Positions 22,138 to 23,649 of a stretch of DNA of 33,883 bases are shown here, piece by piece. The stretch comes from Candidatus Nealsonbacteria bacterium RBG_13_42_11 (GTDB lineage: Bacteria > Patescibacteriota > Minisyncoccia > Minisyncoccales > RBG-13-42-11): NCBI GenBank assembly GCA_001821455.1, contig MHLY01000003.1, forward strand, positions 10,994 through 44,876, read 5' to 3'. A program made the position numbers and the translations under genes. The notes under the pieces were generated by a model. That model did not search any database. It saw only the letters and a list, made by a program, of their open reading frames with translations, and was not told where the DNA came from. Within the stretch, counting starts at the first letter, position 1. Every line of letters begins with the position of its first letter.

Positions 22138-23649
22138 ATGAAAAAATTATTGCTTTTATTGTCTGTAATAATCTTTATTAGTTTTGTTTTTCCAGGGATT
22201 GCAGACGCTGCCGTGCTTAATCCCGGCGCTTCTTGTGCATCTGGAGATCAATGCTGTGAAGTATGTAAAGACTGGGCATCCGCCGCCCTAAGTCGAGGAT
22301 TCCCCGTTTATTACCAATGTAAAATGGGCATGAGTATTGATATGTGCTATGGAGACTGTGGGCCTAAATTATTTCAAAAATGGTATCTTCCAGGAGATTA
22401 CGGATGTGGTCCGTTTGGAGATTGCGCCTGCTTTGTTTGTCAGTGTAATAATATGTGTTGTGGCACCGGGGAAACCTGTGCTAATCCATACAGTACCTGT
22501 AAGGTTCCTGCGTGTAAAAATCAGGGTGACCCGTGTGCCAATAATAGCGAGTGCTGTAATAACACTTGTATAGACGGCTTTTGTTGTGATTCGGTTTGCT
22601 CCGACATATGTAAATATTGTGACGATGCAGAAGGGTTTGGTGCTTGCATAAATGTTCCAAACGGTATGGACCCCGATAATGAGTGCCCCGGGACATCTGG
22701 TAACGGTGATTTCTGTAATGGAGCGGGAGCCTGCCAAACGCAAGCTTCTTGCAAGGCGCTAGGTGCTTCTTGTAGTCTTACAAACTCAAATCTGTTTTGC
22801 TGTACTGGATATGGTTGTTTAAATGGAATTTGTACTCAGATTTGTAATAATGATGAGCATTGTGATACAGGTGCAGGAGAAACTAACGCGAATTGTCCTA
22901 ATGACTGTCGTCCAGGTGGAGGAACGGGTGGCGGCGTTATTCTTTATATTGCTGCTAATTACGAGGGGCCACTAACGGTTGGGAGCGAAACAGAAGCACA
23001 CGTGTTTACATCAAACGTCTCTAATCTAAATGATTTCCTCTTGATTTTAGAGGGATTTCCTTCGGCAGACACCTGGAACGACGAAGTTTCATCAATGAAA
23101 ATATCTCCGGGTTATAATGTTAAATTATGCAAAGCCGCTAATTACGGAGAGTGTCTATCCCAAATCTTCACAACCGATGTTGCTAACTTTGTGGATATTG
23201 ATTTTAACGACACTCTTTCATCGGTAGAAATAACTTATGGTGGGGCGGGTTGCGGCGATACGATTTGTAGCCCGCCACAAGAAAATGCTAATAATTGCCC
23301 AGCGGATTGCGGTGGTTCTGTTCCGGGTTCTCAGCCGATGCCTAAAGGACATCTTAATTTAACTTATCCGTCATTTTTAAACCTTGATTTAAATATGCCG
23401 TTAAATCAGCTTATTGCCCAGCTTTATTATTTTATAATAGCAATTTCCGGCTTGGCCGTATTTGTAATGCTGGTTTGGGGCGGTTTTGAATATTTAACTT
23501 CAACCGGAAACCCGTCAAAAATCGGCAATGCAAAAGAAAGAATAACCTCAGCGCTTCTGGGTTTATTGATTATTTTAGCTTCTTATCTTATTTTACAGGT
23601 AATTAACCCCGATTTATTAACGCTTACTTTACCACAAATCCAACATTAG
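22138..23649 (+). CDS. Secreted Cys-rich modular protein: knottin/hevein-like Cys modules, beta/gamma-crystallin-like domain, C-terminal VirB2/TrbC-like pilin domain
   Basis: 503 aa with signal peptide MKKLLLLLSVIIFISFVFPGIADA. Cys patterns are CKNQGDPCANNSECCNNTCIDGFC and CKALGASCSLTNSNLFCCTGYGCLNGIC. Two motifs CNNDEHCDTGAGETNANCPNDC and CGDTICSPPQENANNCPADCG bracket a Greek-key-like segment (ILYIAANYEGP...NDEVSSMKISPGYNVKLCKAANYGE...FNDTLSSVEI). The C-terminus has two TM helices around WGGFEYLTSTGNPSKIGNAKERITSALLGLLIILASY. Confidence 0.6.
   Translation: MKKLLLLLSVIIFISFVFPGIADAAVLNPGASCASGDQCCEVCKDWASAALSRGFPVYYQCKMGMSIDMCYGDCGPKLFQKWYLPGDYGCGPFGDCACFVCQCNNMCCGTGETCANPYSTCKVPACKNQGDPCANNSECCNNTCIDGFCCDSVCSDICKYCDDAEGFGACINVPNGMDPDNECPGTSGNGDFCNGAGACQTQASCKALGASCSLTNSNLFCCTGYGCLNGICTQICNNDEHCDTGAGETNANCPNDCRPGGGTGGGVILYIAANYEGPLTVGSETEAHVFTSNVSNLNDFLLILEGFPSADTWNDEVSSMKISPGYNVKLCKAANYGECLSQIFTTDVANFVDIDFNDTLSSVEITYGGAGCGDTICSPPQENANNCPADCGGSVPGSQPMPKGHLNLTYPSFLNLDLNMPLNQLIAQLYYFIIAISGLAVFVMLVWGGFEYLTSTGNPSKIGNAKERITSALLGLLIILASYLILQVINPDLLTLTLPQIQH

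Follow-up and report, generated by a model that had tools for sequence, protein, structure and literature searches.

A pilin-core protein with a large modular ectodomain in the type IV secretion system locus of a Candidatus Nealsonbacteria genome

How bacteria of the Candidate Phyla Radiation (CPR; Patescibacteria) recognize and hold their host cells is an open question, and their type IV secretion system (T4SS) is essential for epibiotic growth. The question is raised here by a gene in a 33,883-nt stretch of DNA from the ultra-small symbiotic bacterium Candidatus Nealsonbacteria bacterium RBG_13_42_11 (contig MHLY01000003.1, positions 10,994 to 44,876 of the forward strand; this whole stretch is called the window below). 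The 503-aa product of this gene carries a two-helix pilin core behind a cysteine-rich ectodomain of about 380 residues. What would such a protein do in the pilin slot of a secretion locus? The T4SS of the Patescibacteria, its pilins, and its linkage to dnaA are already known, and no mention of a 380-aa ectodomain insertion, of its domain content, or of the variability of the slot was found in the Patescibacteria T4SS literature searched. The analysis favors, as the probable answer, a pilin of the T4SS locus, in a CPR bacterium of the Paceibacteria class, whose lineage-specific modular ectodomain would be displayed at the cell surface for host contact.

The gene is a single uninterrupted open reading frame (ORF) on the forward strand with an ATG start, and the sequence of the window contains no N. 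It begins 26 nt after the stop codon of virB4 and overlaps the stop codon of the convergent jag gene by 4 nt. All 46 cysteines of the 503-aa protein lie within residues 33-391, with an even number in each sub-region (16, 14, 6, 4, 2, and 4). Three hydrophobic segments (residues 1-29, 424-453, and 467-496) appear in the hydropathy profile. An initial annotation, made from the letters of the window, had predicted a signal peptide, and the first of these segments, ending in ADA/A, agrees with that prediction; the motifs that it quoted were all located where it had placed them.

The public entry for this protein, OGZ18976.1 (UniRef100_A0A1G2DZI3, Candidatus Nealsonbacteria bacterium RBG_13_42_11), is 184 aa long and is 100% identical to residues 320-503. 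This entry begins at the internal Met320, which leaves the 319 N-terminal residues without a public entry in the protein databases searched. Every Cys-rich module and most of the crystallin domain described below are absent from it. An ortholog of 527 aa (P0001) is encoded in a locus with full synteny in three independent assemblies, and it is likewise fused. Because P0001 occupies the syntenic locus in three assemblies and the pairwise ratio of nonsynonymous to synonymous substitution rates (dN/dS) is 0.2-0.3, the gene is, beyond chance, a real coding sequence under purifying selection.

The C-terminal pilin domain proposed in the initial annotation was recovered using Pfam PF18895 (T4SS_pilin), which matches residues 422-489 across profile positions 5-71 of 71; the score of 43.4 bits (E = 3.6e-11) exceeds the cut-off of 26.6. 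The NCBIfam family Mbov_0395, a pilin-like conjugal transfer family of mycoplasma integrative and conjugative elements, is matched with an E-value of 1e-6, under its cut-off. The core starts with the conserved mature N-terminus LNLTYPSF and continues with a first transmembrane helix (residues 424-453), a basic loop (residues 448-469, GGFEYLTSTGNPSKIGNAKERI) that contributes K461, K466, and R468, a second transmembrane helix (residues 467-496), and the tail INPDL. The traits of PF18895 proteins are present: the above-cut-off hidden Markov model match, a signal peptide, two hydrophobic helices with a short basic loop between them, and a setting within a T4SS cluster.

The T4SS context implied in the initial annotation holds, and genes for VirB4, PrgI, TrsD, and a VirB6-like protein lie upstream. 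The pilin-fusion gene is the last of the co-directional cluster, which is a chromosomal, origin-proximal, relaxase-less T4SS of the Patescibacteria type (PMC12102498). The arrangement of TrsD plus VirB4 belongs to the described Patescibacteria system (PMC12102498), and VirB4 is therefore not frameshifted. This T4SS is widespread among Patescibacteria and often lies beside dnaA (PMC12102498), and together with its pilins it is essential for epibiotic growth of a cultivated Saccharibacterium (PMC10633639). Proteins with T4SS-pilin domains are among the most highly expressed extracellular proteins of unknown function in Patescibacteria that parasitize archaea (methanogens) (PMC10936435).

A scan of species-representative genomes using the core returned 23 loci, all from metagenome-assembled genomes of Patescibacteria. 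The order p149, PrgI, TrsD, VirB4, pilin, and jag/yidC/rnpA/dnaA is found in at least 15 of the 23 loci. In the closest relatives, for which VirB4 is 85-89% identical, the slot holds a 154-155-aa membrane protein and a bare pilin of 121-126 aa with no cysteine. The 154-155-aa protein, a predicted membrane protein encoded between virB4 and the bare pilin gene (L004 2126-2590 and L006 5455-5922), is absent from the window and from the related locus L001, in both of which the pilin bears the ectodomain. In an alignment with the bare slot pilins, the signal peptide and the mature N-terminus, LxLxYPxF, are the exact borders of the ectodomain. Bare pilins are the norm: the best 119 matches to the core profile are 130 aa long at the median and 200 aa at most.

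The comparison with P0001 shows where the protein changes. Between the two loci VirB4 and DnaA are 96% identical, DnaN 93%, and YidC 91%. The pilin cores of the 503-aa protein and P0001 are 80% identical and residues 25-204 are 51-52% identical, while residues ~233-400 have no homology to P0001. This last region has been swapped: a crystallin domain is found in the window and further Cys repeats in P0001. The ectodomain dN is 0.37-0.46 compared with 0.02 for VirB4 and DnaA (about 20-fold), with a dS of about 1, and the ectodomain dN/dS of 0.2-0.3 compares with 0.02-0.1 for VirB4 and DnaA. The expectation that orthologs would vary mainly in the ectodomain was therefore realized (~50% identity, versus 96% for VirB4 and DnaA), but diversifying selection is not shown, since dN/dS stays below 1.

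At other loci the core is N-terminal and is followed by a C-terminal extension of 170-450 aa. The extensions in L015 (5893-7062), L017 (5929-7269), L018 (5920-7641), and P0009 form a family of their own that is not in Pfam. Greek-key-like motifs are found in these extensions (hhalign versus a crystallin profile, probability 94.7%, E = 6e-8). Further cores in other Patescibacteria are fused to lysozyme-like SLT_3, NlpC/P60, Peptidase_C39_2, or F5/8-type-C domains (L026 5650-6900; P0022, P0010, and P0012), and N-terminal extensions are also found in P0003, P0008, and P0020. The pilin core thus acts like a general carrier of extracellular modules.

The best-defined module of the ectodomain is the one that the initial annotation had described as beta/gamma-crystallin-like. 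Direct database matches to this region are weak (Protein Data Bank (PDB) entry 3hzb, E = 0.039; Pfam Inhibitor_I36, E = 0.015). An exhaustive HMMER search using residues 261-374 retrieved 346 proteins at E <= 1e-3, including 57 at E <= 1e-10, and Pfam Crystall (PF00030) was found in 80 of the 83 matches scanned. Separate AlphaFold2 models were made for residues 233-400 and 25-262 because a composite MAFFT alignment had set crystallin fragments onto the pilin core. The crystallin core was modeled with a predicted local distance difference test (pLDDT) score of 81-95. A Foldseek search of the PDB with this model returned 26 matches at E <= 1e-3, and all of those listed are beta/gamma-crystallins. 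The top matches are clostrillin and flavollin (E ~1e-6; TM-score 0.76-0.80), and Protein S, nitrollin, and lens crystallins are also found. Residues 266-368 are confirmed by homology and by the model as a beta/gamma-crystallin domain.

The first Greek key of this domain has an insertion of about 15 aa. The signature Y/F-x4-Y/F-x-G is intact in the first key (Y269-x4-Y274-x-G276) and degenerate in the second (C331-x4-Y336-G-E). The segments quoted in the initial annotation, NDEVSSMKI and FNDTLSSVEI, are residues 314-322 and 356-365; they contain the putative calcium motifs NDEVSS (314-319) and NDTLSS (357-362). Both N-D-x-x-S-S motifs are kept in the alignment, which spans the two Greek keys, and the conserved Ser of each key is present. 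The sequence N/D-N/D-x-x-S/T-S is the canonical Ca2+-binding motif of microbial beta/gamma-crystallins (PMC3551895). The cysteine pair C331/C339 of the second Greek key (VKLCKAANYGEC, 23128-23154) is also found in a subset of bacterial homologs (pattern V.ACRHSRFRGRCE), which suggests a disulfide-stapled crystallin subfamily.

The Cys-rich part of the ectodomain, residues 25-262, returned almost nothing in a word-index homolog search. For the 16-Cys domain at its N-terminus (residues 25-125) no relatives were found in two metagenome scans, and it is known only here and in P0001. The next unit, residues 126-199, is a complete copy of a repeat that is absent from both Pfam and NCBIfam. High-GC (69-71%) genomes, which may belong to Myxococcota, encode proteins of 380-765 aa with 3-10 tandem copies of this repeat in a ~70-aa form with a 12-Cys framework; one of these proteins is encoded on a 12.8-Mb contig. 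Residues ~126-200 align with the high-GC repeats over the full unit, with phmmer per-repeat E-values of 1e-8 to 6e-15. Six Cys columns are invariant in the repeat alignment and six further columns are kept in at least 90% of the rows, and the consensus is G.xC...xC.SG.C[VI]DG[VF]CC...C...C..C......G.C..[VI]..G.DP..EC.G...C.G.G.C. The unit is followed by a shortened copy with 6 Cys (residues 205-232, CKALGASC...NGIC, spacing C-x6-C-x8-CC-x4-C-x4-C), for which the counterpart in P0001 is a complete module.

The initial annotation had assigned an inhibitor cystine knot (ICK, or knottin) spacing to residues 126-149 (CKNQGDPCANNSECCNNTCIDGFC). The spacing fits, except that the last gap has four residues rather than five (C144-IDGF-C149), which gives C-x6-C-x5-CC-x3-C-x4-C. 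This ICK-like stretch is not a free-standing knottin but the first third of the ~74-aa repeat with 12-14 Cys, and its structural matches are non-significant. The best PDB profile match of the Cys module is omega-atracotoxin-Hv1a (1hvw; E = 0.2). Nothing significant was returned by Foldseek for the Cys-rich model, for which the best matches (E >= 1.6) are spider ICK toxins aligned over 28-31 residues with a root-mean-square deviation (rmsd) of 1.5-2.3 A; further non-significant matches are a double-ICK toxin, SIBD-1, and the N-terminal region of Dkk4. C126 and C140, the would-be C1 and C4 of the knot, are jointly present in 5 CPR copies and jointly missing in ~28 high-GC copies. This co-occurrence is an indirect hint that fits a C1-C4 bond, though it represents only one or two evolutionary events. 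The ICK likeness of residues 126-149 is suggestive only, as judged from sequence and model.

Residues 205-232 had also been compared with hevein and carbohydrate-binding module CBM18 on account of the motif CCTGYGC, and this assignment was rejected. No Pfam match was obtained at E <= 10 (residues 205-262), and wheat germ agglutinin (2x3t) ranked 9th in Foldseek with a probability of 0.02 and an rmsd of 12 A. The segment has 6 Cys, compared with the 8-Cys pattern and aromatic binding triad of the hevein domain, and the motif is explained by its paralogy to residues 126-150.

The crystallin domain is flanked on both sides by 4-Cys mini-motifs with the pattern C-x4-5-C-x9-10-C-P-x-D-C. Motif A (CNNDEHCDTGAGETNANCPNDC) ends in NCPNDC (residues 252-257) and motif B (CGDTICSPPQENANNCPADC) in NCPADC (residues 386-391). 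Both of the bracketing motifs initially described are thus present, but the first starts with C-x5-C (CNNDEHC) and not C-x(3-4)-C. No family was found for the mini-motif. Similar mini-motifs of the type CGDGxC-x(3-9)-N-x(0-3)-C-P-x-D-C occur in P0003, another pilin fusion, and in P0066, a multi-crystallin protein. The motif recurs beside domains of secreted CPR proteins.

From these parts a route to the surface may be proposed. The protein would be exported by the Sec pathway and its signal peptide cleaved, as the N-terminal sequence indicates. The two-helix core would then insert as a hairpin with both termini outside and the basic loop in the cytoplasm. This topology is supported by the relatives because these have Cys-rich or crystallin-like extensions on one end of the core or the other. 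The ectodomain would fold outside the cell as a chain of small modules, namely a 16-Cys domain, one and a half 12-14-Cys repeats with an ICK-like head, two 4-Cys mini-motifs, and one crystallin domain, probably held by 23 disulfides and two Ca2+ sites. An MdbA-like and VKOR disulfide machinery is encoded in CPR genomes (bioRxiv 10.1101/335083). Whether it served as a membrane anchor or belonged to a VirB2-like filament, the core would keep the ectodomain at the T4SS or on the outside of the cell, from where the ectodomain would contact the host cell surface. This host-contact function is suggested by the operon position, by the rapid modular divergence, and by the literature on epibiont T4SS pilins. 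Gain, loss, and shuffling of the ectodomain among close relatives would reflect adaptation to differing host surfaces. The sole cultivated Nealsonbacteria were seen attached to the archaeon Methanothrix (bioRxiv 10.1101/2022.04.20.488981), and the peptidoglycan target considered in the initial annotation is therefore doubtful.

A number of observations weigh against a host-contact pilin. P0001 (527 aa) is the only full-length relative found. For residues 25-125 and the mini-motifs, which make up half of the ectodomain, the AlphaFold2 model is of low confidence, and no ligand-binding site of the ectodomain could be identified. The pairwise dN/dS values are below 1 and show no sign of positive selection, with dS near saturation. 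To our knowledge, beta/gamma-crystallin domains have no single known function, and we know of no experiment on polymerization or T4SS location for any PF18895 protein. For the core, a profile search of the PDB sequences yielded transmembrane matches due to chance and no related solved structure. The description of the core as VirB2/TrbC-like holds for topology but not for the profile: the 503-aa protein has no match to PF04956 (TrbC/VirB2) at E <= 1, and a 16-sequence core profile compared with six annotated plasmid VirB2/TrbC proteins gave an hhalign probability of 0.65%. A TrbC match (E = 0.047) was obtained for one relative only, L015. Membership of the core in the TrbC/VirB2 family was thus rejected, and the resemblance is one of topology and gene context. 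The term "VirB2-like" for Patescibacteria pilins likewise denotes topology and gene context in the literature (PMC10633639, PMC12102498).

Other readings of the gene were weighed against a surface-displayed host-contact pilin. The protein may be a true modular pilin, of which the core polymerizes via VirB4 and VirB6 into a VirB2-like filament with the ectodomain outside; every subunit would then be decorated, as in a bottle-brush pilus, or the protein would be a rare or first-incorporated tip subunit, as the initial annotation proposed. This is possible, though the odds are against it. Since the closest relatives have a bare pilin in this slot, the gene is orthologous to the ordinary pilin of the locus and not an accessory; both hairpin termini would face outward, and relatives are extended at one end or the other. 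Reviews regard an extracellular filament of this T4SS as a possibility (PMC12857230) and a pilus for this system as plausible (PMC12857230, PMC10633639). However, a pilus has yet to be observed for this system, a load of 40 kDa per subunit would be unprecedented for a T4SS pilin, the window encodes no bare pilin of this core subfamily that could serve as the major subunit, and there is no sequence link to VirB2. A bolder version, somewhat less likely again, is that of a T4SS filament or surface array with a modular-adhesin VirB2-like subunit, in which the core is a universal polymerizing socket, ectodomains are grafted and swapped by lineages at either end, and the grafted ectodomain determines the host range of the episymbiosis. 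The grafted modules would in that case be Cys-knot repeats, Ca2+-crystallin, lectin-like, and lytic domains, and the Nealsonbacteria ectodomain could recognize the methanogen sheath.

Two remaining readings are less likely. That the protein is the precursor of a released effector or toxin, with ICK-like modules that are clipped and act on the host envelope and a core that is an export or targeting handle, would agree with the venom ICK peptides, which the Cys module matches best, though not significantly, in sequence and in fold, and with the lytic enzymes SLT_3 and NlpC/P60 borne by related cores. No recognizable processing site precedes LNLTYPSF, however; the ICK-like stretch lies inside a larger repeat common to structural or adhesive-looking multi-repeat proteins, and the sequence has no toxin-specific feature, so that this reading is improbable. 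An artifact, in which an error in sequencing or assembly joined a secreted Cys-rich gene to a small pilin gene, or a decaying gene might be suspected given that the public OGZ18976.1 spans the last 184 aa only. The ORF is uninterrupted with no internal signal peptide before the core, P0001 is equally fused in its three independent assemblies, the N-terminally extended cores P0003, P0008, and P0020 exist, and dN/dS is below 1 throughout; an artifact is accordingly the least credible explanation, with only a very slight chance of being right.

A host-contact pilin with a modular ectodomain remains the favored reading. The pilin of the virB4-to-dnaA slot takes several forms: bare, C-terminally extended, or with a 380-aa insertion. 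Among genomes with a T4SS ATPase that is 85-96% identical, the ectodomain has been gained, lost, and re-shuffled, and the gene is therefore singled out as a candidate host-contact or specificity factor. In addition, the analysis defines two Cys-rich building blocks that recur and for which neither Pfam nor NCBIfam has a family.

The coordinates of the gene, its domains, and the neighboring T4SS genes are collected in Table 1.

Table 1. Features of the pilin-fusion gene and its T4SS cluster in the window (aa, amino acids; nt, nucleotides)
Feature	Coordinates	Strand	Basis
Whole gene, 503-aa pilin-core protein with large ectodomain	22138..23649	+	ORF, synteny
Sec-type signal peptide, residues 1-24 (MKK, hydrophobic core, ADA/A)	22138..22209	+	Inspection; aligns with signal peptide of bare slot pilins
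N-terminal 16-Cys domain, residues 25-125	22210..22512	+	AlphaFold2 pLDDT <50
Complete Cys-rich repeat unit, residues 126-199, 14 Cys	22513..22734	+	Homology; AlphaFold2 pLDDT 86-94
Shortened second repeat copy, residues 205-232, 6 Cys, ICK-like half only	22750..22833	+	Paralog of 126-150
4-Cys mini-motif A, residues 236-257, then Gly-rich linker	22843..22908	+	Low AlphaFold2 confidence
Beta/gamma-crystallin domain, residues 266-368, two Greek keys	22933..23241	+	Homology, fold search
4-Cys mini-motif B, residues 372-391	23251..23310	+	Motif inspection
Pilin core, residues 405-503	23350..23646	+	Pfam T4SS_pilin match, hydropathy, alignment
Third T4SS_pilin-domain protein, 187-aa ORF, short Cys-rich N-terminus	7448..8011	+	Pfam
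Second T4SS_pilin-domain protein, 343 aa, ~250-aa Cys- and Pro-rich N-terminal ectodomain	14566..15597	+	Pfam
VirB6/TrbL-like polytopic membrane protein, 884 aa	15631..18285	+	Weak Pfam match
149-aa protein and PrgI/VirB3-like protein (137 aa)	18830..19695	+	Upstream operon members
TrsD-like protein, 209 aa	19695..20324	+	Directly upstream, overlaps VirB4 ORF by 4 nt
VirB4 ATPase, 596 aa	20321..22111	+	Family match (CD1110 family, 377 bits)

The two other pilin-domain proteins of the window (187 and 343 aa) belong to another core subfamily with IVPCG...WWQ[IV] ends. The true start of the 187-aa ORF is probably at Met27 (7526). The 343-aa protein, with Cys pairs and a Pro-rich linker in its ectodomain, is 65% identical to the L001 ortholog and differs from it by a 36-aa Cys-rich indel. 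The VirB6-like protein can be aligned with its L001 ortholog over the first ~517 residues only (51% identity); its C-terminal ~365 residues, which are unconserved, are another fast-changing, probably extracellular part of the machine. Although the T4SS cluster is otherwise syntenic with that of L001, a 144-aa ORF without a family is found at 18343-18777 on the reverse strand, and the same place in L001 is occupied by a 378-aa Band_7 gene (5374-6510, reverse strand).

Downstream of the pilin-fusion gene, jag, yidC, yidD, and rnpA lie on the opposite strand and are followed by dnaA, dnaN, a class A penicillin-binding protein gene, and tyrS. Farther away, an 860-aa ORF (1537-4119, reverse strand) combines PlsY (G3P_acyltransf), FakA (Dak2 plus middle domain), and DegV in an unusual lipid-scavenging fusion. 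At its 3' end (1537-1655) this ORF shares ~119 nt with the start of the NusA ORF (228-1655), and the true NusA start may be further downstream. A second DegV gene is found at 4320-5210. At the edge of the window, a 216-aa Lamin Tail Domain protein (33170-33820, reverse strand) is likely to be another surface protein.

The closest known systems are the VirB2-like T4SS pilins of the Patescibacteria (PF18895; Wang et al. 2023, PMC10633639; Quinonero-Coronel et al. 2025, PMC12102498). They share the core, the signal peptide, and the two-helix hairpin with the 503-aa protein, as well as the chromosomal MPF-FATA-like cluster (TrsD, VirB4, PrgI, and VirB6) beside dnaA, and their genomes likewise have several divergent pilin genes each. 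Those pilins are small, whereas here a folded ectodomain of ~380 aa follows the signal peptide. The crystallin domain resembles the microbial Ca2+-binding beta/gamma-crystallins (clostrillin 3I9H, flavollin 3HZB, Protein S, and vibrillin, PMC3551895) in having one domain with two Greek keys and both motifs, and it differs from them in the ~15-aa insertion, the degenerate second signature, the 4-Cys flanks, and the fusion to a pilin core. With the ICK peptides (omega-atracotoxin-Hv1a, 1HVW), residues 126-149 share an identical Cys spacing, C-x6-C-x5-CC-x3-C-x4-C. The matches to these peptides are not significant, however; the stretch found here heads a 74-aa, 14-Cys unit, and two of the six "ICK" cysteines are missing from the wider repeat family. 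The unnamed 12-Cys repeat proteins (P0002, P0011, P0013, P0017, and others) share the whole unit with residues 126-199; the high-GC members have 3-10 tandem copies and no pilin core, and the CPR copies have the added Cys pair C126/C140.

A PrgB-like adhesin was not found in Patescibacteria (PMC12102498). The VirB5-type tip adhesins and PrgB-type surface adhesins of conjugative T4SSs are similar to the 503-aa protein in that they are encoded in the T4SS locus, are surface-exposed, and are presumed to contact the target cell. VirB5 and PrgB are separate proteins rather than pilin fusions and have no sequence or domain relation to it. A likeness in concept is provided by PilB and PilC of Streptococcus sanguinis, which are modular type IV pilins in which a pilin module is grafted to an adhesive or lectin-like module, so that the adhesin is the filament subunit itself. 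These are proteins of an unrelated system, the type IV pilus, with a class III signal peptide, a single N-terminal helix, and the extra module at the C-terminus, whereas a T4SS-type hairpin core, for which polymerization is hypothetical, is found here. If this core polymerizes, a decorated or tip-loaded T4SS pilus would be the T4SS counterpart of the modular type IV pilins.

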